Assembly: GCA_026625185.1 (NCBI GenBank)
Contig: CP113000.1
Location: forward strand, 1,845,622 to 1,877,621
DNA from: Thermodesulfobacteriota bacterium
GTDB taxonomy: Bacteria > Desulfobacterota > WTBG01 > JAGOGO01
DNA: 32,000 nucleotides
Direction: 5' to 3'
Positions 1,608 to 19,921 of the stretch are shown in pieces. Under the pieces are notes generated by a model, which was not told where the DNA came from, searched no databases, and saw nothing but the letters and a program-made list of their open reading frames with translations. Each line of letters begins with the position of its first letter. The first letter of the stretch is position 1. Both the position numbers and the translations under genes were made by a program.

Positions 1608-1658
1608 ACTCGCTGAGCACATTTGTCACATTTGAAAAGTTAACGCTAAGACAACCAG

Positions 1659-3140: not shown

Positions 3141-3165
3141 TTTTCGTTCCTCCTTTCTTTCCTTT

Positions 3166-4101
3166 CTACCATTTGGTCCGCATCAGCGCTTTGGGTGACA
3201 AAAGCTTTTCATCCACCCCGCTGTTAAACCTAATCCATTCGATTTCAACTGCAGTGGTATGATTTGTTCGGTGGTCAACACATTCCACATAGTTCATCGG
3301 GATGCACCCATTATCGCGTATTTCATACGTCCTGAGGATGTCTTTAAATTTTTTGCCATTGGGATCAAAAACATCATCGTGGACTTGAGCGCCAATATCT
3401 TTAGGAATAAACAAAGTTCGCCTTGAATAATACCACGGCTTACGTTTTGGTGTTGCTTCTACTACCCAACTGGGTGTATTTTTATAATAGGTCTTTCCGG
3501 TGTACTGAGAGGTATAGCCTGCAAAGGTGGCATCTTCTTTTACAAACTTATACGTTTCACTACTCCAGTTGCGGGTGGTCAATTCCTCAGTGGTGAGGTC
3601 TGACCCAAACGCAGCATCATCATCTTCCGCAGGCGATGCTCGGCGGATTTTTCTCTGACTGGGGAGCCAGATCCAGTTATCGCGCTCCCGGTTGGGGTCG
3701 AGGTACATCCAGGTAAGCACTGCCAGACCTTTGATATGCTGAGGTTCGGTTAGCACGATCAGATCCTTATAATCAAGTCCATCCTTTTCCAGAATGACCC
3801 GATAACGTTGCCATTTACGGGTCCGCTTAAGGCCGCTTCGGTCAATCATGACAAAATTCCCCACGCTCTCCTGGTCTTTAGCAAACTTAGTATATTTTAT
3901 AATATACTTAATTTGCATCAGGTTGTTCACATCAATGCCTGGATAAAGGTTTACTTTTTTGCAGCAGGTGGAGCAATCAACCGGAGCAGGTAGTAAGAGT
4001 GGTCTTTCTTCAGCGAAAGCTGGTTTAGTGTTCCCGCCTCCGAAAATTAAACCTACCAGCATGATGATGAGAAAGAATGGTAACAGTTTCAGCTTCATCA
4101 T
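3166..4101 (-). CDS. Periplasmic LolA-like outer membrane lipoprotein-sorting family protein
   Basis: 311-aa ORF with signal peptide MMKLKLLPFFLIIMLVGLIFGGGNTKPAFA. The block KGLAVLTWMYLDPNRERDNWIWLPSQRKIRRASPAEDDDAAFGSDLTTEEL matches the W-Y-LP-x-RRVRR...GSDF-x-EDL signature I recall for the LolA_like/DUF1329 group. GGAGGGAG lies upstream of the ATG. Confidence 0.65.
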   Translation of the reverse strand: MMKLKLLPFFLIIMLVGLIFGGGNTKPAFAEERPLLLPAPVDCSTCCKKVNLYPGIDVNNLMQIKYIIKYTKFAKDQESVGNFVMIDRSGLKRTRKWQRYRVILEKDGLDYKDLIVLTEPQHIKGLAVLTWMYLDPNRERDNWIWLPSQRKIRRASPAEDDDAAFGSDLTTEELTTRNWSSETYKFVKEDATFAGYTSQYTGKTYYKNTPSWVVEATPKRKPWYYSRRTLFIPKDIGAQVHDDVFDPNGKKFKDILRTYEIRDNGCIPMNYVECVDHRTNHTTAVEIEWIRFNSGVDEKLLSPKALMRTKW

Positions 4102-4255
4102 CTCCCTCCTTTTCTAAAGTTGATAATTTAAAAAATTTAGTTATGCCTCCTTACCTTCCTCAATCGGAAAAATAAAAAAATGAGAAATATTTTTAGCACC
4201 CCTCCTTCTGTCAACGTACAAAATTTTTACCTCTTCTTCTTGCTGGTGAAAAACT

Positions 4256-5260
4256 TTATTGGATTTTAACCTCTTTAAAAAGCGCAAAAAGCCGAGTAAA
4301 CGGTAAGTACCAGCGGGTGAGTTTTGTTAACTCACCCTTTAATTCCATCTTTTTTTGGGTGGTGGCCACAAAGGGGTCGAGTTTTCCAAAAAAAATCTGC
4401 TGCCAGATTTCCCGGGAAGCAGAGATTACAAAAGGAGCCTCACCAGCTTCATCAAGACCGTCTATCTTTCCTTTGACAAAATGAAACGTATATGCTTTTC
4501 CTGCTTCGCTGGCAAGCATGATTGCGAGGTCAACGCTTAGATCAAACTCAGCGCCTAATTTCCTAAAGGATTCATCGTTGTTCACCAGATCAACAATTGC
4601 CTCCATATGAGGCAAGGAAAACATCTCATAGAAAACCGCAGAAGAAGGTGAGAGGTCTTTTTTCAACTCTTCCTCAAAAGGATTCAGAGTTTCTTTTTTA
4701 AAAAGCCTGGCTACCCCGGCCATCCTCACCGCCTCTTCCAGACTTTCAATCAGATAAAAGGCCTCAGTAAAATTTTCTCCCATGGAGACCACACCATGAT
4801 TCTTCATTGCAACTAAATTGTTCATTTTAAGGGCATCAATAACTTCTTTGGGATTGGTTACACTGGGGGTGAACTGTTTTACTGCCGGAATCTGGCCTAA
4901 GAAAAGTTTGGTTTCAAAGGTTAAGATTTCTAGGTCATCATATACGGAAAAATAGGCATTGGTAAGAGGAGGGTGGCAGTGGATCACCCGGTTAATCTTG
5001 CTGAAATTTTTATAAATGAGACTATGCAAAGGAAACTCGGTAGAAAGACTTTTATTCGTGCAGTCAGCAGAGTTGGTTAAATCAACCGTGATAATATCTT
5101 CTTCTCTCAACTCACCCAGACTTACTGAGGTGGCAGTGATAAGGATTGTATCCTGCGCAAGACGGGAGCTCAAATTACCCCCACGGGCGACTGCCAGGCG
5201 GAGGTCATAAAGTTTTTTCCCTAATCGAATAATTTCTTCTTTTAGGAATTTTTCTTCCAT
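4256..5260 (-). CDS. Class II aldolase/adducin-family domain (MtnB/Ald2/FucA-like) fused to a C-terminal SCP2 sterol/lipid-binding domain
   Basis: 334 aa. The N-terminal ~200 aa carry class II aldolase hallmarks (GGNLSSRL, VIHCHPPLTNAY, MKNHGVVSMGENFTEAF). The C-terminal ~100 aa (AYTFHFVKGKIDGL...FFGKLDPFVATTQKKMELKGELTKL) match the SCP2 pattern GKL-x-P-x-AF-x-GKLKIKG. The start overlaps the upstream stop by 1 nt. Confidence 0.75.
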   Translation of the reverse strand: MEEKFLKEEIIRLGKKLYDLRLAVARGGNLSSRLAQDTILITATSVSLGELREEDIITVDLTNSADCTNKSLSTEFPLHSLIYKNFSKINRVIHCHPPLTNAYFSVYDDLEILTFETKLFLGQIPAVKQFTPSVTNPKEVIDALKMNNLVAMKNHGVVSMGENFTEAFYLIESLEEAVRMAGVARLFKKETLNPFEEELKKDLSPSSAVFYEMFSLPHMEAIVDLVNNDESFRKLGAEFDLSVDLAIMLASEAGKAYTFHFVKGKIDGLDEAGEAPFVISASREIWQQIFFGKLDPFVATTQKKMELKGELTKLTRWYLPFTRLFALFKEVKIQ

Positions 5261-6198
5261 CAGGAGATTCTCAGATAAATATGTCTGGTAATCAATGCTG
5301 CCGGGGTGATGTCAAAAGCGGGGTAATAGCCTTTCACTTCCTTTGGGGCAATTCTTTGGCCGGCAATGGTTAAGAGCTCTTTATCAGGTCGTATTTCAAT
5401 AGCAATATCCTTTCCGGTTCCGGCGTTTGACGGGGGGGGCGCCAGAACATAGAAGGGGATTTTAAATTTTCCGGCTAACAGGGCGATCTGATACGTTCCG
5501 ATCTTGTTGGCAATGTCTCCGTTGCGGGCAAGCTGGTCTGCGCCGGTGATTACTTTATTGACCAAACCTTCCGCAAATACATGGGCGACCGCACTGTCGG
5601 GAATGATGGTCACGTTAAATTCCGCTCTCTGGAGTTCCCAAGCCGTTAACCGCGAACCCTGAAAATAGGGCCTGGTTTCAGTAACAAAAAAGCTTATATG
5701 TTTTTTTTGTTTTCGGCAAAACGCCCCTATCAAAGGTAAAAGCCCGCTTACATTGCAGTGGGTAAGGATGACATCTCGGTCTTCAAAAAGCGCGCCGGCT
5801 GCCTGCGCTTGTTCGATCCGTTTAGCTTTAAGAAATTCCAAGAACCCTTTAATATTTTTTTCTACGGTAGAAGGTTCTTTTCCCCAGTCCAAGACCATGT
5901 CCGTTAAAAATTTAAACGGTAACGTGGGCCGGGTGGCATTGAGACTTTTAGCAATGAGGCTGAGGGTTGGTAAAAGCTTTTTCTCCTCCTTAATGCGTCT
6001 TACATAAAGCAGAAACGTGTAGAAAACCAGAAGCACCTGGCCGATAGCGCGGGTCTTCATGCTTTTTATCGCCCGACACGCCTCCTGATAATTTTTTATT
6101 TTAAAGTAAATGAGGCGTTGGGGGAGCTTGGTCTCATCAAGCGCCGAGATCGTCTCGCCTTTAAGCTCGACCGGCCAGAAAAGCGGAGAAAAATCCAT
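5260..6198 (-). CDS. eIF-2B alpha/beta/delta-family sugar-phosphate isomerase (5-methylthioribose-1-P / 5-deoxyribose-1-P isomerase-like)
   Basis: 312 aa. Motifs are VILTHCNVSG (compare THCNTG) and TGADQLARNGDIANKIGTYQIALLAGKFKIPFYVLAP (compare GADRIAANGDTANKIGTY), as in MtnA-type isomerases. It abuts the phosphorylase gene with no gap. Confidence 0.8.
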   Translation of the reverse strand: MDFSPLFWPVELKGETISALDETKLPQRLIYFKIKNYQEACRAIKSMKTRAIGQVLLVFYTFLLYVRRIKEEKKLLPTLSLIAKSLNATRPTLPFKFLTDMVLDWGKEPSTVEKNIKGFLEFLKAKRIEQAQAAGALFEDRDVILTHCNVSGLLPLIGAFCRKQKKHISFFVTETRPYFQGSRLTAWELQRAEFNVTIIPDSAVAHVFAEGLVNKVITGADQLARNGDIANKIGTYQIALLAGKFKIPFYVLAPPPSNAGTGKDIAIEIRPDKELLTIAGQRIAPKEVKGYYPAFDITPAALITRHIYLRIS

Positions 6199-6948
6199 TT
6201 ATTTTCCTTCCAGGTTTTTAACCGTTTGAAGAGCAATTTGAATGAGCTTTGTTTCCGCCATATAGTAGAGGGGGTTCATAAAACCCATCTCTCCGGTAAT
6301 CACATTATCGCTGACCGCCAGGATAGAAGCCGCCTTGACGTTATAAAGTTGGCTGATGGTAAGGAGGCACGATGAGACCATATCCACGGCGATCGCTCCT
6401 TCTTTCCGCTTTGCTTCGACAACTTCCCGGGTTTCCCGGAGGAGGGCATCCGTGGTCCAGACTTTGCCGGTGTAAACCTGCGACCCCATTCCTTTAGCTA
6501 CCTCGATGAGGGTGTCAGTAAGTTTTTTATCCGGCGTGGTTATAAATTTTTCATCAACATAATAAGGCGTTACCCCATCACCCCTGATAACGCTATCCAC
6601 CACAACCAAGTCTCCGACCTGCATTTTTTCATCTAAGGCACCACAGGTTCCGATCCGGATGATGTTTTTTATCTCCGCGTTACAGACAACCTCAGTGGTA
6701 ATGGCAGTATCCGCGCTGAACCTTCCGCCATTGATGGTGGTGATTTTCATCCCGTCGTATTCTCCGGTATACATGGCGTATTCCATAAAGGAAAAATTTC
6801 GCATCGCATCTTTCAATTTTTTAATCAGCACCTCCATCCGGTCTTTTGGTCCGGGAATGATGGCCCATTCTCCCACATCCTGGGGCCTTAACTGCACCAT
6901 GTCCGTTAGTTCTTTGCCGGTTAAATGGATCGGTTTCTGCATCTCCAT
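6199..6948 (-). CDS. Nucleoside phosphorylase, PNP_UDP_1 family (purine/uridine/MTA-type)
   Basis: 249 aa. The block NIIRIGTCGALDEKMQVGDLVVVDSVIRGDGVTPYY and the later AVDMVSS are typical of hexameric DeoD/Udp-type phosphorylases. Substrate is not inferable from sequence alone. Confidence 0.75.
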   Translation of the reverse strand: MEMQKPIHLTGKELTDMVQLRPQDVGEWAIIPGPKDRMEVLIKKLKDAMRNFSFMEYAMYTGEYDGMKITTINGGRFSADTAITTEVVCNAEIKNIIRIGTCGALDEKMQVGDLVVVDSVIRGDGVTPYYVDEKFITTPDKKLTDTLIEVAKGMGSQVYTGKVWTTDALLRETREVVEAKRKEGAIAVDMVSSCLLTISQLYNVKAASILAVSDNVITGEMGFMNPLYYMAETKLIQIALQTVKNLEGK

Positions 6949-6949: not shown

Positions 6950-7864
6950 TCATGCTCCTTTCAGCAGATTATTAATAGTTTCACCGAGAATATTTTTTAT
7001 TTCGTTTTGGCTCAGGGGGAGTTGGGAAACTGCCTCCTGTGAACCCTTGATATCTTTTTTTGCCGGCCAGTCGCTTCCCCACAAAATATGCTGCGTGCCT
7101 AAGAGCTCTAACGCGGAAAGGAAGTTGGAGGTGGTTTTATCCCCGCCGGTATCCACATAGATATTTTTAAGGAATTGGGTGGGATTACCTCCCAAGTCTT
7201 TTACAAAATTAATTCCGCGTAACATTTTATAGGTCTCGTCAAACCGGTTGGCCACATGAGTGATGATGCCGCCAAAATTTGAAAAAATAAGCGTGAGTTC
7301 CGGAAAGAGCGTGAAGATGTCTGCCATCAAAAGTTTGCCAATGGAAATAGTGGTATCAAAAACATATTCGATAACCGGGGTCAGTAGGGGATCATTCACC
7401 CGTTCTGATCCGATGGGGTTGATAATCTGGGGATGAACAAAAATAGGGATGCGATTTTTCTGGGCGATCTCAAAAATCGGCCAAACCGTCCGGTCATCAA
7501 GATAAACCCCGTTATAGCTGCTTGCCAAAGAGAGAGCGCGAAAACCCAGCTGTTCAGTTGCGCGTCTCAGTTCGAAAACCATTTCTTCGGAATTGCCGAG
7601 CGGCAGTATAGCGGCGCCAATAAACCGATCAGGAAAGCGGACAACAATCCGGGCGATTGCGTCGTTATAAATTCTGGCTACCTCATTGAAGCTTCCCATT
7701 TTGAGGTGGGCGTTGGTGGTGGGGTAGCTTAAGACTGCCTGGTCTATTCCCGCTTTATCCATCATCGATACCTGAGCTTCAATATCACCCCACGCCGGGG
7801 AGAAAAAATGAGCATTGCGAATGATTTCCTCGGGCAGCCAGTGGCTGTGGGCGTCAATAATCAT
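6950..7864 (-). CDS. Amidohydrolase_2 (PF04909, ACMSD/resorcylate-decarboxylase-type) metal-dependent hydrolase/decarboxylase
   Basis: 304 aa. The N-terminus MIIDAHSHWLPEE carries the HxH metal motif. FVHPQ and WGSDWP blocks are typical of the family. The start overlaps the upstream gene by 4 nt. Confidence 0.7.
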   Translation of the reverse strand: MIIDAHSHWLPEEIIRNAHFFSPAWGDIEAQVSMMDKAGIDQAVLSYPTTNAHLKMGSFNEVARIYNDAIARIVVRFPDRFIGAAILPLGNSEEMVFELRRATEQLGFRALSLASSYNGVYLDDRTVWPIFEIAQKNRIPIFVHPQIINPIGSERVNDPLLTPVIEYVFDTTISIGKLLMADIFTLFPELTLIFSNFGGIITHVANRFDETYKMLRGINFVKDLGGNPTQFLKNIYVDTGGDKTTSNFLSALELLGTQHILWGSDWPAKKDIKGSQEAVSQLPLSQNEIKNILGETINNLLKGA

Positions 7865-8256
7865 TTATGTTCAGTACTCCGTAAAATCCGTTCAACCATT
7901 TCCTGGTGATAAAGGTTTTTTATTTCTTCCAAACCGTCTGCACCCAATTCTTTCACGATTGCTTTTTCGATGGCTTTTAATTTTAAAGCAAGAAATTGGT
8001 GTTCGGGATTGAGGTAGTCTCCTTTCAGTGACCTCAAGGTTTCGCAGTCCTTGTCCTTATTGTTCACATAAGTGTTAAAGTCCTCAAAAAAAATTTGATA
8101 GTTAAGTTCTTCTTTTCGCAACTCTTCTCGAATAAACTTATCTATGTCAATCTGGGTGAACTTCCGGTCGACACGATCAAGGGCTTCTTTGGTTTCTTTA
8201 TAAAGCCAGATGAGATATCTTTTCTTTAAATTAAGAGTATCGTCCATTTTCATCAT
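7861..8256 (-). CDS. Hypothetical protein (131 aa, charged, predicted helical)
   Basis: The ORF is translationally coupled on both sides (4-nt overlaps at 8253-8256 and 7861-7864). I recognise no motif in it. Confidence 0.5.
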   Translation of the reverse strand: MMKMDDTLNLKKRYLIWLYKETKEALDRVDRKFTQIDIDKFIREELRKEELNYQIFFEDFNTYVNNKDKDCETLRSLKGDYLNPEHQFLALKLKAIEKAIVKELGADGLEEIKNLYHQEMVERILRSTEHK

Positions 8257-9026
8257 TTATCAGGGTGCTCCTGTTTGTAAGGGATTACCGGTTCGGTCCA
8301 TGGGGTCTGCTGGTTGATAACCGAAATCTCCAAAGGACAAACATTCGCCGGCACGTTTAGCGCGAATTTGACGGCATTTTCAATTGCCTCCGTGGTCATC
8401 AGCCGTGATCGATCCACGGTTATTTTATCAAGTTTTTCGGTCAGCTCGGTATCGGTTACTCCGGGAAGGATGGAAGTTATCTTTATTCCATGGTCCCGCA
8501 TCTCCCAGAAAAGGCCTTTGGAAAAAGCCCGCAGCCCGACTTTTAAAGAACTATAAACCAGGAACGTTCGCGGAAGCGGATCACAGAGGGTGGAACCGGA
8601 GACCATATTGATAATGGTGCCGGACTTTCTTTTTATCATATCGTTTATGACTAAACGGATCATTCGCACGTAACCCAGGTAGTTGGTATGAACCAACCGT
8701 TCAAAATCCTCAAACGGCTGTTTTTCAAACGGGTACTGGCTCGAAATTCCGGCATTGTTGATCAGAATATCAATCGCTCCAAATTGTTTTTGAGTCTTTT
8801 TTACCAGGTTCTCAAGATCTTCGAATTGCGTTACATCAGTTGAAACCGGGAGGACCTCGACTCCATAATGGTTTGCGATTTCGACCGCGGTTTCTTCCAA
8901 AGGACCTTCTCCTCGGGCTGCCAAGCTCAAGTTGATCCCAAGACTCGCTGCTGCTTCCGCAATCGCCTTGCCGATGCCGCGGCTTGCGCCGGTGATGATA
9001 GCGGTCTTTCCTTTTAACAGTTCCAT
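8253..9026 (-). CDS. Short-chain dehydrogenase/reductase (SDR), candidate ketoreductase
   Basis: 257 aa. It has the TGASRGIGKAIAE cofactor motif, NNAG (LINNAGISS) and catalytic YSSLK (YxxxK). Confidence 0.85.
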   Translation of the reverse strand: MELLKGKTAIITGASRGIGKAIAEAAASLGINLSLAARGEGPLEETAVEIANHYGVEVLPVSTDVTQFEDLENLVKKTQKQFGAIDILINNAGISSQYPFEKQPFEDFERLVHTNYLGYVRMIRLVINDMIKRKSGTIINMVSGSTLCDPLPRTFLVYSSLKVGLRAFSKGLFWEMRDHGIKITSILPGVTDTELTEKLDKITVDRSRLMTTEAIENAVKFALNVPANVCPLEISVINQQTPWTEPVIPYKQEHPDK

Positions 9027-10154: not shown

Positions 10155-10595
10155 TTATGACCCCGCCTCCTTTTCAATCACGGCTTTAAAAATTTTCAGG
10201 TTTTCTTTGGAGTGCTGGTTAATGAATTCTTCAACTTGTTCATCGTTAAATGCTGCTTTTGGATCCATCTTAAAATGCTGGATCCAGGTGAGCTCGATCC
10301 CTTCAGGCTTTGGGGTATAAAGCCAGATGATTTTCATGAATTCAAAAGGAAATTTCGGTTCTTCTCTTTCTGCGTAAGCCAAGTAGTTTTCTTTAAACAA
10401 AAGTCGAAATGATTGCCAGGTTCTTCCTTCTTTATCAGTAAGCTTGAAGGTGATTTTATTGTTTTCTTTTTTAACGACAACTGCTTCTTTATATTCACCG
10501 CCGAAAAGCTCGGTCCACCGGGGAATGTTATTCGAGATGTCGAAAATTAAATCGTAGGGAGCCTTGATAATAATGGAATTACATGTATGTCCCAT
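10155..10595 (-). CDS. SRPBCC-superfamily protein (polyketide cyclase/aromatase-like, Polyketide_cyc2-type)
   Basis: 146 aa. The N-terminus SIIIKAPYDLIFDISNNIPRWTELF and the size fit the START/Bet v1-like cyclase/dehydrase fold. GGAGGA lies upstream of the ATG. Confidence 0.55.
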   Translation of the reverse strand: MGHTCNSIIIKAPYDLIFDISNNIPRWTELFGGEYKEAVVVKKENNKITFKLTDKEGRTWQSFRLLFKENYLAYAEREEPKFPFEFMKIIWLYTPKPEGIELTWIQHFKMDPKAAFNDEQVEEFINQHSKENLKIFKAVIEKEAGS

Positions 10596-10617: not shown

Positions 10618-11415
10618 TTATACCATCGCCACTACCCGCGCCCAGGCTGCTCCGGCATCCTTGATTTTTATTGGGAAGCAGGAAATTTTAAAGCCAAAGG
10701 GAGGTAGTTTCTTCAAATTGGTCAATCTTTCAATATGAGCGTATTCCTTTTTACGACCAAAAAAATGAGCGGGCCAAAGATATGAGGCATCTTTGGTGCG
10801 CAAAAAATCAGCCATCATAAAAGGGTAAGGACGGTCAAAGCCAAGCGCATCAATGCCGATAACCTTTACTCCCTGATCCAAAATATACGCCAACGCTTCC
10901 GGGGAAACACCCGGATAGTTGGCTAAGTACTCAGGAGTCCCGAAATACTGATCGGCATCCGTGCGAAGCAGCACAATATCTTGGCGCTTGATAGTATAGT
11001 TTATCTTGTTTAATGCACTGAGCACATCTTCCCTGGAGATCACCTCGCCCGGTTTTTTGTGCGATACATCCAACACCACCCCGTCACCAAAACACCATTC
11101 AAGGGGAAGCTCGTTTATGGTCTTGGATTTTTTTCCTTCCGAACGAGTCCCGTAATGGAAAGTGAAATCCACATGAGTGCCAATATGGACTGGACAGTGA
11201 ACGGTCTCGAGCGATAAAAATTCTCCGTCCGGAAGATCTTCGAACTTGATAATTCTCTTTCCCAGAAAATAGGAAATTTTTCCCCAAAGCGTCTTTTTGA
11301 GCATTACCCAGTTTAAATGTTTTACCCCTTCGCGGTGATTGATTCGCTCAATGCCAAAGGGATGGACTTCGAAAGAACGTTCATCAATGGAGAGGCTTAA
11401 ATCAAACAGTTGCAT
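10618..11415 (-). CDS. Cyclase-family protein (PF04199; kynurenine-formamidase/polyketide-cyclase type)
   Basis: Contains VHIGTHVDFTFHY, which is the HxGTHxDxPxH-type metal motif. I place the start at the ATG at 11415 (MQLFDLSLSIDE...), not the tracked 11502, because the longer form would overlap the ACP gene by 100 nt. Confidence 0.7.
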   Translation of the reverse strand: MQLFDLSLSIDERSFEVHPFGIERINHREGVKHLNWVMLKKTLWGKISYFLGKRIIKFEDLPDGEFLSLETVHCPVHIGTHVDFTFHYGTRSEGKKSKTINELPLEWCFGDGVVLDVSHKKPGEVISREDVLSALNKINYTIKRQDIVLLRTDADQYFGTPEYLANYPGVSPEALAYILDQGVKVIGIDALGFDRPYPFMMADFLRTKDASYLWPAHFFGRKKEYAHIERLTNLKKLPPFGFKISCFPIKIKDAGAAWARVVAMV

Positions 11416-11650
11416 GGAGTAATAACTTTCCCTGAATAACCCGATCAATATCCTTAAAACAAGAAAATTTGGTAATTTCTTTTTCCATAATATTGATGCC
11501 AAATAATTTTTCGATCGCGAGGATAAGCTCTACCGTTTCCGTAGAATCAAGACCAAGACCGCTATAGAGTTCCACATCATCCTTGATTTCGTCTGGATCA
11601 ATCTCAAAAAGCTCGATCAAAAGGTTTTTAACTTTTTCTTTAACATCCAT
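11402..11650 (-). CDS. Acyl carrier protein
   Basis: 82 aa beginning MDVKEKVKNLLIELFEID, with the phosphopantetheine-attachment motif LGLDSTETVEL. GGAGGAAGCAAACTT lies upstream of the ATG at 11650. The tracked 112-aa form is a spurious 5' extension into the rSAM gene. Confidence 0.85.
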   Translation of the reverse strand: MDVKEKVKNLLIELFEIDPDEIKDDVELYSGLGLDSTETVELILAIEKLFGINIMEKEITKFSCFKDIDRVIQGKLLLHATV

Positions 11651-11667
11651 AAGTTTGCTTCCTCCTA

Positions 11668-13128
11668 TTAAATCTGGACCTCTCCTTTGGTTGCTCCCGC
11701 TTCCCATTTTCCGACTCCGGCCATGACATCTTGGAAGCAAAGTTTAGCGAGAACATCAAAATCACTTTCCATAATGCGGTTTATTCTTCCCGGCTTGGAG
11801 TAAAATTCACGCATACACCAGGCGCCCAGCCGCCCCAGGTCTTCAACCGTAAGGTGATCGGTAGGCATGACGGGGTGGAGAAAATCCCACCGGCTAAAAT
11901 CTACGTTTCGAGCGTCAATCCACTTATTCTTAAGCGATTTTCTCCAAACCGGAGAATTGGGCGCCGGAGTCACATAACCAATCCAGAGAATATCCGGATC
12001 AACCTCATCGGTAAATTCGTATCGCTGCTTGATAATCCGCTCATCATCATAGTCAAAGCCCATCATAATATCCGCTACTACGGCAATATTATTTCTCCGA
12101 AGAATTTCGATAGTTTTTTTGATCTGATCAACGGTGATCCCTTTGGCGATCTTTTTCAGCTCCTCGGGGGTGGTGACTTCAATGCCAAAAACACCGATGA
12201 AAAGCCCTGACTCTTTCATTAACGGAAGGATTTCCTCGCAATTAATCCAGTCCACTGCTCGTCCTAAGGAAACCCACTTGATCGGAATATTTTTCTTGAG
12301 CTTAAGCTCGCAGAACCGCTTAACCCGCGCGGGATCAACATTGAAGTTATCATCCTGGATAACCACGACTTTAACGCCATATTGTCGGTGAAGAATTTCC
12401 AGCTCGTCAATGACCCGTTCAGGAGATTTAGCGCGCCATTTAAGGAAGTCTCTGGGGGATCGCGGATCATACTGATCCCATTCATAACAGAAAGTACAGG
12501 CGGAAGGACATCCCCGCGAGGTAACCATTTCCACAAACGGCTTCCAGTGGGTGTGACCAACATAGCGATCCATGGGATAAAGATCGTAAGCCGGAAAAGG
12601 GAGTTTATCTAAGTTCTCTGATAGCGCCTTGTGAGGTCCCATGACAATCTGTCCGTTGACCCGGGATGTGACTCCTGCGACTGCCTTAAGGTCTTTATTG
12701 TTGTTAAGCGCGTCAACCAAGTCAAAAAAGGATTCTTCTTCGCCCATGACCACAAAATCAACGGCGGGATTATCTTCTAAGGTCTCGACCGGCATGGCTG
12801 AATACCAGAGCCCGCCCAAGATGATTTTAGTTTTTGGCAGAACGTCTTTGATTAATGCGGCGGACTCATTAAAATGCGCGATAATCCCGTAACCGCCGTA
12901 AGAATGGAGCATATCACCAATAACCACTACATCGGGATTGTTCTCCTTTACTTTTTCTATCATTTTTTCTTTTGCTATATCCAAAGCTTTGCAGTCCAAG
13001 ACCTCGATATCCCGGTATCCTTTTTCTCGAATATAGGCAGCCCAGTGAGCGTAAAGTTGGTTAGGTGCTAAGTGCTTTCCATGGGTTGCCCAAGCCCCGA
13101 CTCTGGGCATGACAAATAAAATTTTCAT
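11668..13128 (-). CDS. B12-binding-domain radical SAM enzyme (class B rSAM)
   Basis: 486 aa. The N-terminal Rossmann-like cobalamin-binding region is MKILFVMPR...DVVVIGDM...IILGG...DFVVMGEEE. It is followed by the CxxxCxxC cluster motif SRGCPSACTFCYE. Confidence 0.85.
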   Translation of the reverse strand: MKILFVMPRVGAWATHGKHLAPNQLYAHWAAYIREKGYRDIEVLDCKALDIAKEKMIEKVKENNPDVVVIGDMLHSYGGYGIIAHFNESAALIKDVLPKTKIILGGLWYSAMPVETLEDNPAVDFVVMGEEESFFDLVDALNNNKDLKAVAGVTSRVNGQIVMGPHKALSENLDKLPFPAYDLYPMDRYVGHTHWKPFVEMVTSRGCPSACTFCYEWDQYDPRSPRDFLKWRAKSPERVIDELEILHRQYGVKVVVIQDDNFNVDPARVKRFCELKLKKNIPIKWVSLGRAVDWINCEEILPLMKESGLFIGVFGIEVTTPEELKKIAKGITVDQIKKTIEILRRNNIAVVADIMMGFDYDDERIIKQRYEFTDEVDPDILWIGYVTPAPNSPVWRKSLKNKWIDARNVDFSRWDFLHPVMPTDHLTVEDLGRLGAWCMREFYSKPGRINRIMESDFDVLAKLCFQDVMAGVGKWEAGATKGEVQI

Positions 13129-14363
13129 GCTGTCTCCTTTTTTTCAATAACGATAACTGTATTAATGCCTCCTCGGCCCCGTGAAATGACCAGCGCCTTA
13201 TTGATCTCTTTTTCATGAGCCTTACCGATGATGTAATTGAGACCCTCAGGGTCAGGCACCTCAATATTAATCGTTGGGGGAACCGAATTGTGCTCCATTG
13301 CTAAGATAGTCGAAATGAGATCTACCGAACCTGATGCCCCCAACAAATTTCCAAACATTGATTTGGGACAACTTACGGGGACGGTTTTTGCCTTATCTGC
13401 GAAAACGTCTTTTATAGCTTTGGCTTCGCTTTGGTCCCACACTTCTACGGCTAAACCGTCCAAGCTTATATAGTCAATTTCTTCGGGCGCTGTCTCTGCT
13501 TCATTTAAAGCCATCCGTATCGCCCGGGCTAATTGTTTGCCGCTGGGGTCAGGGTTAATCCGATCTTTGCCATCGCAAGTATTTCCAACGCCCGAAATAA
13601 CTGCCAAGATATTTGACCCCCGCGCCTCAGCACGATCAATGTTTTCCATCAGGATTACCCCGGATCCTTCTCCGATCACAAAGCCCTGCCGGTTTTTGTC
13701 AAACGGGCGATACGTTTTATGGGGATAATCATTATTTTCCGCAATACCTCCATAGGTATTACAGCATAAGAGGGCATAGGGAGTAACCGGAGCTTCCGTA
13801 CCGCCGGCTAAGATCATGTGGAGTTTTCCCTTCACCAAGGTGTCCCGCGCATAGCCTACGGCCATTAAAGAACTTGCGCGGTCAGCTACCACGGTTTTGC
13901 TGAAGCCTTTTATCCCGTAATAGATGGAGACCTGTCCTTGAGGTGCGGCCGGAAACCACGCCGAAGCCATATACGGAGATACTCCCTCCCGGCCTTCGAT
14001 GTAAAGGTCGCGCAGTTCGGTTTCAGCGTAAAGCCAGCCTCCCAGAGCATTGCCTAAAAATATCCCCACCAGGTTGGGATCTTCTTGCCTAATATCCATC
14101 TTGGCATCTTCAAGCGCCATCTCGGAGGCAACCAAGGCCATATGCGAGAAAAGATCGATTTTTTTGAGAAGGCGTCGCGATAATAAGCCGTAGTTCTCCA
14201 AATCATCGATCTGTCCCGCAATATGGGAAGGATACTGAGAAGCATCAAAACGAGTGATCTTCTCCACAAAAGAGCGCCCGGATTTGATGTTTGCCCAAAA
14301 CTGCCGCTTGCCGATACCCGGAGGAGCTACGACTCCTATCCCGGTGACTGCTACCTTTTTCAT
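13125..14363 (-). CDS. Ketosynthase-beta / chain-length-factor-like subunit (thiolase fold, catalytic triad absent)
   Basis: 412 aa. It aligns along its length with the upstream KS, but the active-site block reads VVADRASSLMAVG (Arg where KS has Cys). The His blocks read TCDGKD, SLDGLA and KSMFGN (His to Asp/Asp/Asn). The start shares 1 nt with the KS-alpha stop (TAATG). Confidence 0.8.
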   Translation of the reverse strand: MKKVAVTGIGVVAPPGIGKRQFWANIKSGRSFVEKITRFDASQYPSHIAGQIDDLENYGLLSRRLLKKIDLFSHMALVASEMALEDAKMDIRQEDPNLVGIFLGNALGGWLYAETELRDLYIEGREGVSPYMASAWFPAAPQGQVSIYYGIKGFSKTVVADRASSLMAVGYARDTLVKGKLHMILAGGTEAPVTPYALLCCNTYGGIAENNDYPHKTYRPFDKNRQGFVIGEGSGVILMENIDRAEARGSNILAVISGVGNTCDGKDRINPDPSGKQLARAIRMALNEAETAPEEIDYISLDGLAVEVWDQSEAKAIKDVFADKAKTVPVSCPKSMFGNLLGASGSVDLISTILAMEHNSVPPTINIEVPDPEGLNYIIGKAHEKEINKALVISRGRGGINTVIVIEKKETA

Positions 14364-15628
14364 TAGTTCTTATACCTTTTTATAATGAGAGAAGAATGAA
14401 TGCCTGAAAATCCACTGCTGGTCTTCAAAATAGTATCAACCTTTTTTTCCCGAGAGCAATTCGGGATATAGTCCAAATCGCAAAGCGGATCGTTCTTTAC
14501 CTGGTTGATGGTCGGCGGAAGCAGATTCTTTTCAAATATCATCGCGCCAATAACCAACTCAACCGCGTTCGCTGCCGCGAGGGGGTGCCCGATCATAGAT
14601 TTCATAGAGCTTATCGGCAGCTTATACGCATAGTCGCCAAAGACCATTTTGTAGGCGTTAGTCTCAAACACATCATTCATGCGCGTGGAAGAACCGTGGG
14701 CATTAATATAATCGATTTCACCAGGCTGCAGGTCCGCATCTTGAAGGGCTAATCTGATGCAGTCAGCCATCGCTGTGCCGTCCGCGGGTAGGTCGGTCAT
14801 ATGAAACGCGTTACAGCTGGTGCCGAATCCGGCTACCTCACAGTAAATCTTCGTTCCCCGCTTCAGTGCATGCTGGAGTTCTTCCAAAATTAAGATTCCA
14901 GCTCCTTCTGATATAACAAACCCATCCCGATCATTATCAAAAGGCCGGCTGGCAGCTTCGGGATCATCATTACGCGCAGAAGAGAGGACATTAACGACAT
15001 CAAAGGCGCCAAAGGTAATTGGAGTAATGGGGGCTTCGGCCGCTCCGGTAATCATGATGTCCTGCTTGCCGTCCTGAATTACTTCTAACCCATAACCCAA
15101 TGAATCGGTTCCCGCGGTACATCCGGTCGACAAGGTGTTACAGATTCCCTGAAACCCGTATTTGCTTGAAACCTCGATGGACGGAGTATTAAACATGGCG
15201 GCGTCATAGAGGTCAGGTCTGACCTTGGAGGGGTCAATGGGATTTTTCCCATTATCGGTCACAAAGGAAAACTCTTCCTCCATATACTTGGTGCCGCAAA
15301 TGGCATTGGCTAAACAGACGCCAATCCGCTCAGGATCTTCGTGCGCAAAATTAAGACGGCTGTCTTGGTAGGCCATTTCGGCCGCTACCACGGCAAACTG
15401 AACATATCGATCCATCCGCATGGCGTCATCATGAGTCAGACCATAGTTAAAGGGGTCAAAACCTCTTACCTCAGCGGCAATTTGCGATTTAAACATGGAT
15501 ACATCAAAATAATCTACTTTTCTTACTGCCGATTTTCCTGAAATCATGGCGTCAAAAGCTCTGTTCTTGCCGATTCCATTGGGGGAAATTACGCCGATTC
15601 CGGTAACGACTACCCGTCTTTTTTTCAT
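14363..15628 (-). CDS. Beta-ketoacyl synthase, type II PKS KS-alpha-like (FabF family)
   Basis: 421 aa. The active-site Cys lies in LSTGCTAGTDSLG (compare VSTGCTSGLDAVG of type II PKS KS-alpha). The His residues lie in CNAFHMTD and INAHGSST, with KSMIGHPLAAA also present. Confidence 0.9.
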   Translation of the reverse strand: MKKRRVVVTGIGVISPNGIGKNRAFDAMISGKSAVRKVDYFDVSMFKSQIAAEVRGFDPFNYGLTHDDAMRMDRYVQFAVVAAEMAYQDSRLNFAHEDPERIGVCLANAICGTKYMEEEFSFVTDNGKNPIDPSKVRPDLYDAAMFNTPSIEVSSKYGFQGICNTLSTGCTAGTDSLGYGLEVIQDGKQDIMITGAAEAPITPITFGAFDVVNVLSSARNDDPEAASRPFDNDRDGFVISEGAGILILEELQHALKRGTKIYCEVAGFGTSCNAFHMTDLPADGTAMADCIRLALQDADLQPGEIDYINAHGSSTRMNDVFETNAYKMVFGDYAYKLPISSMKSMIGHPLAAANAVELVIGAMIFEKNLLPPTINQVKNDPLCDLDYIPNCSREKKVDTILKTSSGFSGIHSSLIIKRYKN

Positions 15629-16221
15629 TGGTCTTTTACCTCCTCAATTCTAGTGACTTTAAAAACAATATTTCCATTATCCGGGCAGGTAACGGTATCG
15701 ATACTATTGGGGTTATCCATAAAGAAAAATTTTGCTCCAAAGTTAAGCGCAAAAAGAGCCGGGAAGGCGGTATGAAAAGCGGCCCCGCAGAATTCCGGTA
15801 TCGCTTTAAGTCCCACGGTTTCAAATTTATCTCCCAACTTATATCCATAGTGGCAACTTCCTTTGGCTTTAACCACTTCAAGTACCATCTTTTTGGGCTG
15901 CGGCCCTTGATACGTTGGGTCTTTTGGAATAACCTCAACGTGGCCTTGTCTATCCAGAATCTCAGCAAGAAACTCGAGTTTCCCTCCATCCGGACAGGTT
16001 AAAGTTAACGAACGCTGGTTATCACGGAAAGGAAACCGGGCCCCAAAGCTGATCGCATAGATGACCGGGAAAAGCACATGAGCTAAGCCTAAGCAGAAGT
16101 ACTGAGGTGGATGCGTAAAGTCTTCGAGAATAAGCTCATCGCCCACTTTATAACCGTGATAACAATCTCCGTATACATTGAGTACCGTAAGTTTTAATTT
16201 TGGAAAAGGTGTATCAAACAT
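15625..16221 (-). CDS. Tandem-duplicated TIGR04076-like Cys-rich protein
   Basis: 198 aa made of two ~85-aa halves. Both halves share G-x-C-x-x-GYK-x-GD ... FC ... FP ... FGA-x-F-x-F-x-DN ... TCPD-x-G. AAGGA lies upstream of the ATG. The 3' end overlaps the KS-alpha start by 4 nt. Confidence 0.6.
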   Translation of the reverse strand: MFDTPFPKLKLTVLNVYGDCYHGYKVGDELILEDFTHPPQYFCLGLAHVLFPVIYAISFGARFPFRDNQRSLTLTCPDGGKLEFLAEILDRQGHVEVIPKDPTYQGPQPKKMVLEVVKAKGSCHYGYKLGDKFETVGLKAIPEFCGAAFHTAFPALFALNFGAKFFFMDNPNSIDTVTCPDNGNIVFKVTRIEEVKDQ

Positions 16222-16286: not shown

Positions 16287-17291
16287 TCAGGGAATTAGTT
16301 TTTCGGTTTCTGCTAATAATTTTTCCTTGCTGAAAAAAGTATTAGCGCGTTCAACTTCGTGCACCATCTCAACCAATTTTTGGTTCAGCGGCGATTCTAA
16401 CGCATTTTCTTTAGCCAGGGTGATGAATTCTCCGTTGATGAAATCAATTTCCGAAGCACGGCCCCGCTTGATGCTTTGTAATATTGACCCATAGAGGGGC
16501 TCTTTACTTAAATTAATCATAATCCCTGAAAATATTTTAGCTGCTTCATCAATTGGCATGGCGGTTAAACCACCCAGGCGCTCCAGAGGAAAGTCGGGCA
16601 ACGACGTTAAGGTAACGTTCGATTTGGTTACGATACCCAATCCCTCTTTCCAGATGCCGATGCTGATGCGGCTTACGCTGGGATCGGCGAATGCTTCCTG
16701 CATGCTCATCCCTAATATGGCGGGGATGCAGTTATTGGCATTAACAAAGATCTTGAGATATTTCATTCCCCTGATATCATCAGTGATGATGGTGGGAAAA
16801 ATGTTATTGAGCAGCGCTTGCAGCGCATTGACCGAGCTGTCATTAGGTCCAAACATCTTGCCGATGATCCAGTCGCCGTCAAAGTTATGGATAACCTTTC
16901 CTTCTTCTAAAGAGGTCGCGCCAAACATGACGATACTGGAAATAGTATTTTCCACGGGGAGGTGGTGAGCAACAAGCGAATCAGCGCGAACCCCATTTTG
17001 CGTCGTGAGCAAACACGTTTCTTTTAAAAAAGCAAGGTTATCTTTGAGGGCTTCTTCTACGTCCTGAGTTTTAACCGCGAGAATAGCGACGTCCGGCTTC
17101 TCCCGCAGGCGCTCACTGACCTCAAGATTAACGCGTGTTTCTCCCCGTGCTCCGGAGATCAGCAAGCCGTTTTTTTTGATCATTTTCACCGTGCGCGGGC
17201 GACCAATCAAATACACCGTTTCATTGTTAAGTGTGAGGTATCCGGCGGCGACATTGCCGATCGCCCCGGCACCGATGACCGCGATCTTCAT
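16287..17291 (-). CDS. 2-dehydropantoate 2-reductase family (PanE/ApbA) NAD(P)H-dependent ketoreductase
   Basis: The Rossmann start is MKIAVIGAGAIGNVAAGYL. The C-terminal block SILQSIKRGRASEIDFINGEFITLAKENALESPLNQKLVEMV matches the family signature. I prefer the ATG at 17291, which abuts the upstream stop. The tracked start at 17324 would overlap the upstream gene by 32 nt. Confidence 0.8.
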   Translation of the reverse strand: MKIAVIGAGAIGNVAAGYLTLNNETVYLIGRPRTVKMIKKNGLLISGARGETRVNLEVSERLREKPDVAILAVKTQDVEEALKDNLAFLKETCLLTTQNGVRADSLVAHHLPVENTISSIVMFGATSLEEGKVIHNFDGDWIIGKMFGPNDSSVNALQALLNNIFPTIITDDIRGMKYLKIFVNANNCIPAILGMSMQEAFADPSVSRISIGIWKEGLGIVTKSNVTLTSLPDFPLERLGGLTAMPIDEAAKIFSGIMINLSKEPLYGSILQSIKRGRASEIDFINGEFITLAKENALESPLNQKLVEMVHEVERANTFFSKEKLLAETEKLIP

Positions 17292-17292
17292 T

Positions 17293-17562
17293 TTACTTGG
17301 GGAATCCATATTTCTTATAATCAAATCCCGTGTGATCCAAGAGCCTCACCATCATGCTGTAGAATGGTTTAGGCACCTCTGAGAAAAAGGCGCTGATCAC
17401 ATCGTGTTCTTCCACAATCTGAGAACCTCGTGATTGGGCATTTTCCTCCGCTTTTTTACTGGCAAAAACCTGCGCTAACCCCCGATGAAAGACCGGGAGT
17501 TTAGCGATCATGAGTTCGAATTTTTCCTGAGTAGTTTTTTTCCATTCCATCGTTTTACCCAT
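17293..17562 (-). CDS. Small PCP_red-like protein (PF08369-like helical domain)
   Basis: 89 aa. MEWKKTTQEKFELMIAKLPVFHRGLAQVFASKKAEENAQSRGSQIVEEHDV resembles the W-x-x-EA-x-x-L-x-KIP-x-FVR...AR-x-x-G...IT pattern of the protochlorophyllide reductase B C-terminal domain. This is recognised from memory only. It overlaps the MMPL stop by 8 nt. Confidence 0.4.
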   Translation of the reverse strand: MGKTMEWKKTTQEKFELMIAKLPVFHRGLAQVFASKKAEENAQSRGSQIVEEHDVISAFFSEVPKPFYSMMVRLLDHTGFDYKKYGFPK

Positions 17563-19921
17563 GGGCTAAAAGTGTCAATGATTCTTCCCGAAAAAGGAAA
17601 CGCGGCTTAATGATTCTTATAAAGATGGGTAGCAAAAAGAGAGCGGCCATCATGTTGATAAACAAAAGAGAGCCTAACGCTGCTCCCAGCTTTGCCTGGA
17701 GTTTAATGCCGGAAAAGAGCCAGGAGAGCACTCCGTTGCTGATGATCATGCCGGTGAAAAAAACCGCTTTTCCTGATGTTACGAGCGCTTTTTGTATCGC
17801 TCCTGAAAGGTCAGGGTTACCATGACCTTTCAGGATTTCTTCATGAATACGGGCCGCTATATAAATGCTGTAGTCAATACCTAAACCAATCCCCATGGCT
17901 GCTACCGGTAAGGTCTCAACGGTCAAGGTTACCCCTGAGAGTCCGAATATGCCGAAGGTGAGAATAATGCTGAATATCAGGGGAATAAAAAGGAACAAAC
18001 CGCCAATTAAAGATTGGAGCGCGACCGAAACCCTCAGCAGAACTAAAATGAAGACCAGAATAATATTGGAATACGTTGATTGTTTAATAATGTCATTCAC
18101 TGCTGCAGTGGTTCCGATGAGCCCGCCGGCAAGCTTAAACTCCGCGTTTCCGCTATTATGATTTTTTTTGATCCAGTCTTGCGTGGCAGCGATGGTTTTA
18201 TTGATGGTTGCCGCGCGATGATCTTTCAGGTCGAATTTGATATTGGCGTGCTTATAATCGGGACTCAAAACTGGGTCGAAGTCCCCGGGAAAACCGGAAA
18301 TTGAATAAAGGAATAAATATTCCGCAATCGTTCCGTCATTCTCGGGAATCTTAAAGGAGGCGGGGTTATTATTGTCCATGACGAAGTTAAGGCCCTTGAT
18401 ATAATCGGCTAAGGAAACAGCGCTTCCGATTTCCGGGAATCTGGTAACGAGATGGCGCTGGAGGGAATCCATTTCTTTAAGCACTCTCCAATCCAGCATG
18501 GCTTCATCCTTCTTGCCTTCGACAAAAATGTAATAAGGGTTTGCTCCGGTAAACTTTGCGTTGACAAACTTTTCCGCCATATTATACGGGGAATGAGGAT
18601 AAAGCGTGGCTGAACCTTCTTCGTTATCTCCGACCACGATCTGGGTTATCCCTTTTATTCCCAAAACAGTAAGGATGATAAAGAAGGCTAAAATGACATT
18701 TCTTCCCCAAGCATGTTTCCCGATTCCGGCAATCCGGCTAAGTATCCTGTCCACACTATTGGGCCGTTCCTCCCGCTCCACCTCCCTTTGTACGGGCACC
18801 GGAATATAGGTAAGGATTGCGGGTATAAAGGTAACGACTGTGAGATAGAGGCTGAAGACTCCGGCTCCCGCGGTAATGGCTAAGGTTTTGATCATGACTA
18901 GGGGAACAATCATGAGCGAAAGAAATCCCAAGCCATCAGTAAACAATGAGGCTCTTACGGGGTTTGAAAGCGCGGCCAAAGTATTCTCCGAGGCTTTTAA
19001 CCGGTCATGAGGATTGGCTTTGATTTCTTCATAATAGCGCTTGATGAATTGGATGGCGTGACTTATCCCGATCGCTAAGATGAGGAAAGGGACCAAGGTA
19101 GTCGTTGGGTCCAAATGGAAGCCTGAGAGGCTTAAGATTCCCAGCCCCCAGACCACTCCCATTAATGCCGCGGCAAAAGGAAGCAAAATTCCCCGCTTGG
19201 AACGAAACGCGAAGAACAGAAGAAAAACCATGATAAGGATCGTTCCCAAAAATACCGTCAGCAATTTGGGGAGATAATAATCGAGCCACCCTTCTAAAAT
19301 CGGCCGCCCGGCCAGATAGAATTTGGTCGTGCCGTCTTTTTCCTTCTCAATGATCTGGTTGAGTTGTTGAAATATTTTTTTGGAAGAAACCTCCGGATAA
19401 AAGTCCAAGACAATTTGTGTGGCCGAGAAATCATTGGCCACGATCGGTCCGTAAACCAGGTTATTTCTCATGATGGATTTTTTTAAAAACCCCATCTTTT
19501 CAGGTGTCGTAGGGGCCTCCCGCATCAAATGAGTTACTTTAAAACCTTCCTCCGTGCCTTCAACCCGTTTTATCTTCCGTGCGGATAGCGAAACGATTCT
19601 CCCGATATTAACCCCCTCGAGGTAGTAAAGCTGGTTGGTGATCCGTACCACTTTCTCCAGCAGAGCGGCTTGGAAAATATCACCTTCTTTTGGCTCTAAA
19701 GCAATGGAGACCTGATTAAGGCCGCCAAAAATTTTCATGAGCTGGTTATTAACCTCAACAAAGGGATGCTTTTGAGGAATAAAGTCCTGGACGCTGGTGT
19801 GAATGGTTAAATTTTTCAGGGTATAAAGGAAAAAAGCGGTAACCACTAAAGGGAAAAGGCTGAAAAACAAGCGGTGGCGGAGGACAAAGGTTGCTAATTT
19901 TGAAGAAGAATGATCAGTCAT
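17555..19921 (-). CDS. MMPL/RND-superfamily exporter (HpnN-like lipid transporter type)
   Basis: 788 aa with two blocks of about six TM helices, each preceded by a large soluble loop. The SSD-like block is VPFLILAIGISHAIQFIKRY and the second half has GIGLGIDYSIYIAARI. The start forms an ATGA overlap with the MarR stop. Confidence 0.85.
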   Translation of the reverse strand: MTDHSSSKLATFVLRHRLFFSLFPLVVTAFFLYTLKNLTIHTSVQDFIPQKHPFVEVNNQLMKIFGGLNQVSIALEPKEGDIFQAALLEKVVRITNQLYYLEGVNIGRIVSLSARKIKRVEGTEEGFKVTHLMREAPTTPEKMGFLKKSIMRNNLVYGPIVANDFSATQIVLDFYPEVSSKKIFQQLNQIIEKEKDGTTKFYLAGRPILEGWLDYYLPKLLTVFLGTILIMVFLLFFAFRSKRGILLPFAAALMGVVWGLGILSLSGFHLDPTTTLVPFLILAIGISHAIQFIKRYYEEIKANPHDRLKASENTLAALSNPVRASLFTDGLGFLSLMIVPLVMIKTLAITAGAGVFSLYLTVVTFIPAILTYIPVPVQREVEREERPNSVDRILSRIAGIGKHAWGRNVILAFFIILTVLGIKGITQIVVGDNEEGSATLYPHSPYNMAEKFVNAKFTGANPYYIFVEGKKDEAMLDWRVLKEMDSLQRHLVTRFPEIGSAVSLADYIKGLNFVMDNNNPASFKIPENDGTIAEYLFLYSISGFPGDFDPVLSPDYKHANIKFDLKDHRAATINKTIAATQDWIKKNHNSGNAEFKLAGGLIGTTAAVNDIIKQSTYSNIILVFILVLLRVSVALQSLIGGLFLFIPLIFSIILTFGIFGLSGVTLTVETLPVAAMGIGLGIDYSIYIAARIHEEILKGHGNPDLSGAIQKALVTSGKAVFFTGMIISNGVLSWLFSGIKLQAKLGAALGSLLFINMMAALFLLPIFIRIIKPRFLFREESLTLLAHG

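Follow-up and report, generated by a model that had tools for sequence, protein, structure and literature searches.

A predicted BchE/HpnJ-like class B radical SAM enzyme associated with a putative anaerobic type II polyketide synthase-like operon

Enzymes that use radical S-adenosylmethionine (SAM) chemistry on ketoacyl chains have rarely been proposed, and a 2026 review lists ladderanes and jawsamycin as the only candidate cases (PMC13459092). One of them is anammox Cluster I, a set of proposed ladderane genes comprising amxACP, amxFabZ, amxFabF2/amxFabFmut and a gene for a B12-type radical SAM enzyme, which is thus among the very few systems for which such chemistry has been suggested (PMC13459092). 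In addition, a HemN-type radical SAM methylase has been reported from a polyketide synthase (PKS) of type II (PMC9714029). Here, we describe a 32,000-nucleotide stretch of a Thermodesulfobacteriota genome (assembly GCA_026625185.1, contig CP113000.1, positions 1,845,622 to 1,877,621; hereafter the window), in which a gene for a radical SAM enzyme lies between the genes of a ketosynthase-like protein and an acyl carrier protein (ACP). Based on sequence comparison, the gene is predicted to encode a BchE/HpnJ-like radical SAM enzyme of class B that is so far uncharacterised, and its orthogroup, named rSAM-1, is a constant part of an anaerobic type II PKS-like operon of wide occurrence. Literature searches found no characterisation of this cluster or of the enzyme.

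In gene content, anammox Cluster I appears to be the closest formal parallel to the window cluster. Both combine a dedicated ACP, an active and a dead ketosynthase (KS) and a B12-type radical SAM enzyme in an anaerobe, whereas the window cluster differs in having aromatic-type cyclases, an amidohydrolase_2 and a nucleoside module, in lacking FabZ, and in the family to which its radical SAM enzyme belongs. A system that makes ladderane-type lipids or other cyclic fatty acids, in which the radical SAM enzyme would cyclise or cross-link an ACP-bound acyl chain in the way suggested for its counterpart in anammox Cluster I, could account for the shared ACP, active/dead FabF heterodimer and B12-type radical SAM enzyme (10.64898/2026.05.19.726425, PMC13459092). 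It would also agree with the 'Ladderane' gene cluster calls in metagenome-assembled genomes (MAGs) of Omnitrophota and Desulfobacterota (PMC9902471), and with the MMPL, LolA-like and DUF1302 genes of the operon, which suggest an envelope lipid. We nevertheless judge such a system very improbable, because the window enzyme scores 85 bits against TIGR04072, the curated model for the B12/radical SAM enzyme of ladderane-type (anammox-type) lipids, whose cut-off is 360, and because the operon contains two aromatic-polyketide-type cyclases and neither a FabZ-type dehydratase nor an enoyl reductase nor a phytoene-desaturase-like gene. The antiSMASH 'ladderane' calls may themselves represent clusters of the window type.

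The radical SAM gene occupies positions 11668–13128 on the minus strand, which also carries all other genes of the region, starts with ATG and encodes 486 aa. An N-terminal B12-binding domain was found at residues 30–136 (PF02310, 46.6 bits, cut-off 32.1), followed by a Radical_SAM domain at residues 201–365 (PF04055, 83.8 bits, cut-off 29.5), and the CxxxCxxC motif formed by C207, C211 and C214 is invariant across 82 aligned relatives. The AlphaFold2 model (pLDDT 92.3, pTM 0.91) was matched in the Protein Data Bank (PDB) most closely by class B enzymes exclusively, namely AprD4, MgmA, TsrM, TokK, CysS and OxsB, with both domains covered, while a PDB search with the sequence returned weak matches only. 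The fold search on the predicted model supports class B membership and leaves the chemistry unassigned. A preliminary description of the locus, made from the DNA sequence, had named a class B radical SAM enzyme, an identity borne out by the two domains, the motif and the fold matches. It had also held that the chemistry cannot be read from the sequence, and this remains the case, as methylation and BchE-type oxidation are not separable by sequence.

Family placement was based on curated profile cut-offs, in place of a class B phylogeny with named references. The best NCBIfam model was that of BchE (TIGR02026, 219 bits against a cut-off of 481, residues 3–431) and the second best that of HpnJ (TIGR03471, 148 bits against 578); the 81 nearest relatives likewise all stay below every curated family cut-off. 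In an exhaustive homologue search of 1.84 billion representatives, identity was found to drop sharply outside the family, through 49, 47, 41 and 38% to 34% or less. Taken together, the steep drop and the sub-cut-off scores point to a distinct uncharacterised orthogroup within the BchE/HpnJ-like part of class B. Membership of a known clade of unrelated function, which the preliminary description had named as a possible objection, was not found, since BchE, HpnJ, HpnR, PhpK and the other named families all score far below their curated cut-offs.

The likeness to BchE was assessed by profile, there being no solved BchE structure for a fold comparison. Like BchE, the window enzyme joins an N-terminal B12-type domain to a radical SAM core, and the oxygen-independent oxidation and ring closure performed by BchE would fit an anaerobic aromatic-polyketide pathway. 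Unlike BchE, it stands in a polyketide and not a bacteriochlorophyll context, and the host is no phototroph by the evidence seen. A true orthologue of BchE (chlorophyll ring E cyclase) or of HpnJ (hopanoid cyclitol ether) that neighbours the PKS genes by chance would explain why these are the top two curated models, but this is almost certainly wrong: both scores are less than half of their cut-offs, the 81 relatives fare no better, every orthologue belongs to a PKS-type cluster, and the host is a sulfate reducer with no BchE-level match anywhere in its genome. True BchE references were also sought in control genomes, and none was found above the cut-off.

The junctions of the gene are compact. 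Its ATG shares the tetranucleotide ATGA (13125–13128) with the TGA of the 412-aa KS-beta gene, giving an overlap of 4 nt, and AAAGGAG is found 8 nt upstream of this ATG. Its TAA (11668–11670) is followed by 17 nt (TAGGAGGAAGCAAACTT, which includes the Shine-Dalgarno sequence AGGAGG) and then by the ATG of the ACP gene at 11650. The overlap and the spacing agree with the preliminary description; the span that it had assigned to the radical SAM gene, 11402–13128, takes in the true gene and the ACP gene as well. A 112-aa open reading frame listed at 11402–11740 corresponds to the ACP frame with a TTG further upstream taken as its start.

The neighbouring genes correspond to the minimal set of a type II PKS, with an active KS-alpha, an inactive KS-beta and a discrete ACP. 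The KS-alpha (14363–15628; Pfam and NCBIfam profiles) retains Cys/His/His, whereas the chain-length-factor-like KS-beta (13125–14363; Pfam KS N and C domains) has Arg/Asp/Asn at the equivalent sites and is catalytically dead, as judged by aligning it with KS-alpha and with the FabF of the host genome. Classical chain length factors carry Gln at the position of the active-site Cys, in contrast to the Arg of the window protein. The ACP (11402–11650; 82 aa; PF00550, 37 bits) carries a GLDS serine motif. Since a separate canonical fabF-acpP pair is present in the host genome at ~748 kb, the KS set of the operon is considered a secondary, type II PKS-like system. No oxygenase was found among the genes of the operon, and the accessory enzymes are of anaerobic type, being a TIGR04076 protein in the window and an aldehyde:ferredoxin oxidoreductase (AOR) and an FMN reductase beside the orthologue in genomes G039, G144 and G205.

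The association between the radical SAM gene and the KS set was examined in a main family of 80 species-level loci, with orthologues 73–93% identical, by mapping the window proteins on each locus. KS and ACP were found inside the fetched DNA in 63 of the 80. Main-family loci were counted as fully flanked if 7.9 kb or more was available on either side of the radical SAM gene; of these, 33 of 35 contain the KS pair, and both exceptions carry a KS pair elsewhere in the genome. A sister family at 49% identity (family C), recovered from a metagenome scan, has the KS pair in all 19 of its fully flanked loci. Furthermore, among 301 evenly sampled host-phylum genomes, a KS-beta orthologue (E < 1e-160) was detected in six, the identical six carry an rSAM-1 orthologue, and the other 295 carry neither. 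Homologues are therefore not mostly without ACP or KS neighbours, which was the pattern that would have spoken against the preliminary description. The operon occurs in more than 100 species-level genomes, mostly of Omnitrophota, with a patchy presence in sulfate reducers.

Within this gene set, the position of the radical SAM gene varies. Orthologues, 47–93% identical overall, occupy at least four positions. In arrangement A, that of the window, the gene lies between KS-beta and ACP (43 of the 80 main-family loci); in arrangement B, KS-beta is followed by ACP, and the radical SAM gene stands further along, between a short-chain dehydrogenase/reductase (SDR) and the amidohydrolase_2 (35 loci); in one further locus, it lies between the two cyclase genes. 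Family C opens with ligase, PNP-family phosphorylase, MtnA, a short IF-2B, aldolase-SCP2, aldehyde dehydrogenase (ALDH), radical SAM gene and a gene for an 89-aa protein (orf89), and continues with ApbA, KS-alpha, KS-beta, ACP, cyclases, SDR and amidohydrolase. Host-phylum orthologues outside the host genome, 51–63% identical (genomes G007, G039, G126, G144 and G205), add to this diversity. G126 shows order B. In arrangement D (G039, G144 and G205), the order is FMN reductase, radical SAM gene, AOR, ApbA, TIGR04076 and KS, the radical SAM gene being upstream of the set, and in G007 it is likewise upstream, with orf89 next after it. Two Omnitrophota genomes have a split cluster, with the radical SAM gene, amidohydrolase_2 and nucleoside module together and the KS pair 250–680 kb away.

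In trees of the radical SAM protein, the A loci form one clade nested among B lineages, and monophyly of B was rejected (p-AU 7e-4, and 1e-7 with G126 included), with the caveat that the A and B groups had been named after the tree was seen. The order KS-beta, radical SAM gene, ACP is thus, by these trees and gene orders, a single derived relocation from B to A. Because the wedged position is one inherited rearrangement, it is unusable as evidence for an ACP-bound substrate, and the earlier proposal that the enzyme acts on an ACP-bound intermediate, drawn from its position, has to be given up: a place between KS-beta and ACP is not obligatory, being found in 43 of 80 main-family loci within one clade, while other orthologues stand at three or more other positions in the set. 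As to the check proposed earlier, whether homologues consistently adjoin an ACP and KS pair, the tie to the KS/KS-beta/ACP set holds, but the wedged order itself does not extend beyond the A loci. A 131-aa gene of the window marks the ancestral neighbourhood of the radical SAM gene. It is kept between SDR and amidohydrolase in A and lies between SDR and the radical SAM gene in G126. The idea that it is a remnant of the radical SAM gene was rejected, since it has no similarity to that gene and G126 holds both side by side.

The host genome (G000) is closed, with 3.30 Mb, 44% GC and 94% completeness, and the host is regarded as a sulfate reducer because DsrA scores above its cut-off. The cluster is absent from all nine sampled genomes of the host's class, and the window radical SAM protein falls within the Omnitrophota A clade, at 74–93% identity, as do the copies of two MAGs that bear the labels delta proteobacterium and Pseudomonadota. 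This nesting, the class-mates without the cluster and the 51–63% identity of the phylum copies, which belong to other orders, suggest that the whole operon (window positions 1–20394) was acquired horizontally and is of Omnitrophota type.

For the chemistry, the reading that we favour, at roughly even confidence, is a hydrogen-abstracting class B enzyme that carries out oxygen-independent C-methylation or BchE-type oxidation or ring closure on the polyketide. Its [4Fe-4S]/SAM site would generate a 5'-deoxyadenosyl radical, which would take a hydrogen from an unactivated carbon of a polyketide chain that is probably still tethered as a thioester to ACP or pantetheine. The outcome would be cobalamin-mediated C-methylation or BchE-type oxidation and ring closure, steps for which aerobes would use oxygenases or ordinary methyltransferases. 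The inhibitory 5'-deoxyadenosine from each turnover would be cleared by the phosphorylase/isomerase/aldolase module of the operon.

Action on a thiol-tethered substrate is plausible by analogy with structural neighbours. According to the titles of their PDB entries, the crystal structures of CysS and TokK include pantetheinylated substrates. These cobalamin-dependent C-methylases (CysS and TokK/ThnK) resemble the window enzyme in their class B fold (Foldseek E ~1e-20 to 1e-21), and CysS and TokK act on carrier- or pantetheine-linked substrates of the kind that had been proposed in the preliminary description. They differ from it in sequence (16–19% identity), in length (~140–180 residues longer) and in being located outside type II PKS clusters. 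AprD4, a 1,2-diol dehydratase of similar length, is also a close fold match (template modelling score 0.73–0.77), whereas its identity is 17–18%, the NCBIfam AprD4 model gives 61 bits against 500, and its substrate is an aminoglycoside.

Several observations weigh against the hydrogen-abstraction reading. No sequence feature of the enzyme assigns a chemistry, and the best structural match within the class B fold is AprD4, which is not known to use cobalamin. In the split clusters, the radical SAM gene stays with the nucleoside module, away from KS and ACP. A lone tailoring enzyme would have no obvious need of a private, always co-inherited nucleoside-to-acid pathway with an SCP2 aldolase; outside the operon, the host genome contains three further PNP-family genes and another MtnA. 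Furthermore, the cobS profile (TIGR00317) found no match in four of five cluster-bearing genomes, the host included. Genes with B12 domains are plentiful despite this, seven each in G301 and G303, the two cobS-negative cluster-bearing genomes that were checked, so that corrinoid uptake is likely and the host probably depends on imported corrinoids. About 14 B12-domain radical SAM-like genes were noted in the host genome. Cobalamin supply was also tried as a discriminator of the chemistry and failed, given this combination of missing cobS and abundant B12-domain genes.

The nucleoside-to-acyl module is a constant companion of the enzyme. An MtnA-type isomerase and an aldolase-SCP2 accompany the radical SAM gene in every arrangement; a PNP-family phosphorylase is usually present as well, and an acyl ligase often. 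The lipid-binding SCP2 domain is fused to the aldolase in every version, and outside the window's own lineage an ALDH follows the aldolase. In the window, the module consists of a PNP_UDP_1 phosphorylase (6199–6948), the isomerase (5260–6198) and an SCP2 fusion of a class II aldolase (4256–5260), all identified by Pfam. The three Pfam domains of the dihydroxyacetone phosphate (DHAP) shunt are thus all present, although the isomerase passes the broad TIGR00524 only, and phosphorylase and aldolase fall below all equivalog cut-offs. The DHAP shunt is an established salvage route for 5'-deoxyadenosine that uses the same three enzymes (PMC10986504, PMC8102628). Its order (MtnP or MtnN/K, MtnA, Ald2), which starts from a SAM-derived 5'-deoxynucleoside, is the same as in the window module. 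The latter differs in its location inside a PKS operon, in the SCP2 fusion and in its last enzyme, an acyl ligase or LsrF-type thiolase. The same likeness and the same differences hold for the fluoroacetate pathway of Streptomyces cattleya, in which a PNP enzyme (FlB), an isomerase, an aldolase and an ALDH follow one another.

B-type Omnitrophota loci add a zinc alcohol dehydrogenase (Zn-ADH) and an LsrF-type thiolase (361 bits, cut-off 297) after the ALDH; most B-type clusters lack the phosphorylase and often hold a gene of the class IV aminotransferase/ADC-lyase fold in its place. Examples of the LsrF-type 3-hydroxy-5-phosphonooxypentane-2,4-dione thiolase, Zn-ADH and aminotransferase-fold genes are L054:13772-14617, L047:15337-16365 and L070:10444-11259. 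From these annotations, the dehydrogenase and the thiolase could oxidise 5-deoxyribulose-1-phosphate and convert it to DHAP and acyl-CoA. Both variants, ALDH/AOR-ligase and ADH-thiolase, end in an activated acyl unit. The host genome contains a Zn-ADH (55% identical) and LsrF-like (45%) pair far from the operon (G000:C1:729852-731975), and no cluster-type ALDH was found in it.

In some genomes, the nucleoside module has its own radical SAM enzyme. G039 and G144 have a further operon, apart from the KS cluster, in which a paralogue that is ~41% identical to the window enzyme (rSAM-2) stands immediately before the phosphorylase; it reads MMPL, rSAM-2, PNP, MtnA, IF-2B fragment, aldolase-SCP2, ALDH, LolA, DUF1302 and AMP ligase (L173:7013-16712 in G144 and L172 in G039, the latter ~600 kb from the KS cluster). 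The LolA-like, DUF1302 and MMPL genes of L173 match the set found in the window. In the tree, the sister group of rSAM-1 comprises rSAM-2 and a third paralogue adjoining a glycyl-radical enzyme.

This module opens a different reading, in which SAM is a carbon donor. The radical SAM enzyme (or, in some genomes, rSAM-2) would act like HpnH and MqnE and attach the 5'-deoxyadenosyl radical to an unsaturated, hydrophobic precursor of lipid or polyketide type, and the phosphorylase would strip off adenine. The MtnA-type isomerase would then produce the 1-phosphoribulose form, which the SCP2-aldolase would split into DHAP and R-CH2-CHO, and ALDH or AOR with the AMP ligase (or Zn-ADH with the LsrF-type thiolase) would give R-CH2-CO-S-X as primer for KS/KS-beta. 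If true, C5' and C4' of the SAM ribose would enter a polyketide as a two-carbon activated acyl extension, in a phosphorolytic counterpart of futalosine and adenosylhopane chemistry performed by a B12-domain enzyme. The gene orders speak for it in several ways: rSAM-2 is followed by PNP through ALDH to AMP ligase in L173; family C runs from the AMP ligase through PNP, MtnA, aldolase-SCP2 and ALDH to the radical SAM gene, orf89, ApbA and KS; an AOR directly follows rSAM-1 in G039, G144 and G205; and B-type loci carry the thiolase and Zn-ADH. In addition, the module is tightly linked to the radical SAM gene, its aldolase always bears a lipid-binding domain, the host has other PNP and MtnA genes elsewhere, and two separate routes to an activated acyl unit would be odd for plain disposal. 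Precedent is offered by the logic of HpnH/HpnG (PMC13459092), and the enzyme order of the fluoroacetate pathway matches the module. As in HpnH/HpnG of hopanoid side-chain synthesis and MqnE/MqnB of the futalosine pathway, a radical SAM enzyme is here paired with a PNP-family enzyme of the kind that cuts adenine off a SAM-derived adenosyl adduct.

We consider a carbon-donor role unlikely all the same. To our knowledge, the adenosyl-adding enzymes HpnH and MqnE have no B12-type domain, and their systems continue with no isomerase, aldolase or ALDH; MqnE is only a weak fold match, to the core domain, at rank 48, and the window phosphorylase reaches 56 bits with the HpnG model, whose cut-off is 187. 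Where both paralogues exist, it is rSAM-2 and not the window orthologue that adjoins the phosphorylase, and the gaps in phosphorylase occurrence among the B-type clusters also tell against the route. Moreover, the DHAP shunt already provides an established salvage for free 5'-deoxyadenosine (PMC10986504, PMC8102628), the function that the module would have under the favoured reading of hydrogen abstraction from the polyketide.

The host operon as a whole comprises ~21 co-directional genes, with overlaps or short gaps, from a MarR regulator at the head of the array (19918–20394) to an AMP-forming acyl ligase (1–1503; 501 aa; stop codon 3 nt beyond the window start). The regulator is followed by an MMPL/HAE3 exporter of the RND type (17555–19921), both identified by Pfam and NCBIfam profiles, then by orf89 (17293–17562), an ApbA/PanE-type ketoreductase (16287–17324; Pfam and NCBIfam profiles) and a tandem-duplicated Cys-rich protein (15625–16221) that matches TIGR04076 in two stretches (90.8 bits). 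After KS-alpha, KS-beta, the radical SAM gene and the ACP come a putative PF04199 cyclase (10618–11415), whose ATG at 11415 overlaps the ACP stop, an SRPBCC polyketide cyclase/dehydrase-like protein (10155–10595; PF03364 24.1 bits, cut-off 23.4; PF10604 27.0 bits, cut-off 27.4) and an MFS transporter. The remaining genes are a FabG-like SDR ketoreductase (8253–9026; profile searches), the 131-aa protein (7861–8256; no Pfam match, traced by synteny), the amidohydrolase_2 of the decarboxylase/lactonase superfamily (6950–7864), which adjoins the radical SAM gene in arrangement B and in the split genomes, the three module genes, a LolA-like and a DUF1302 outer-membrane protein (1659–4101; assigned by profile), which form a putative export set with the MMPL gene, and the ligase, also assigned by profile.

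Some of these genes vary in their own right. Arrangements A, B and D all keep the TIGR04076 gene upstream of KS-alpha. Family C is without it; there, at L091:11915-12346 and at further loci of the family, the space from ApbA to KS-alpha is taken by a DUF4440/SnoaL-like gene. orf89, traced by tblastn synteny, is present in all arrangements and lies directly downstream of the radical SAM gene in family C and G007; its only similarities are weak Pfam matches, to DUF2621 and the PCP_red helical domain, and it may be a partner of the radical SAM enzyme. Among the arrangement D loci, an FMN-reductase/flavodoxin-like gene precedes the radical SAM gene in at least two of L166, L167 and L168, and a tungsten-type AOR follows it in all three. 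Downstream of the amidohydrolase, L166 (G144; 442-6223) and L168 (G205) carry a glycyl-radical enzyme, its activase and the third B12-type radical SAM paralogue; the stretch of L167 (G039) stops at the amidohydrolase.

Altogether, these comparisons show that gene order in a 'minimal PKS' is no guide to mechanism. Radical SAM chemistry on the ketoacyl chains of fatty acids and polyketides is almost unexplored, and the operon provides a defined system for how strict anaerobes carry out the tailoring that aerobes do with oxygenases. The radical SAM enzyme is best studied jointly with the nucleoside-to-acyl module with which it travels. Should this module handle an adenosylated intermediate, and not free 5'-deoxyadenosine, it would represent a novel route by which carbon skeletons are made out of SAM.

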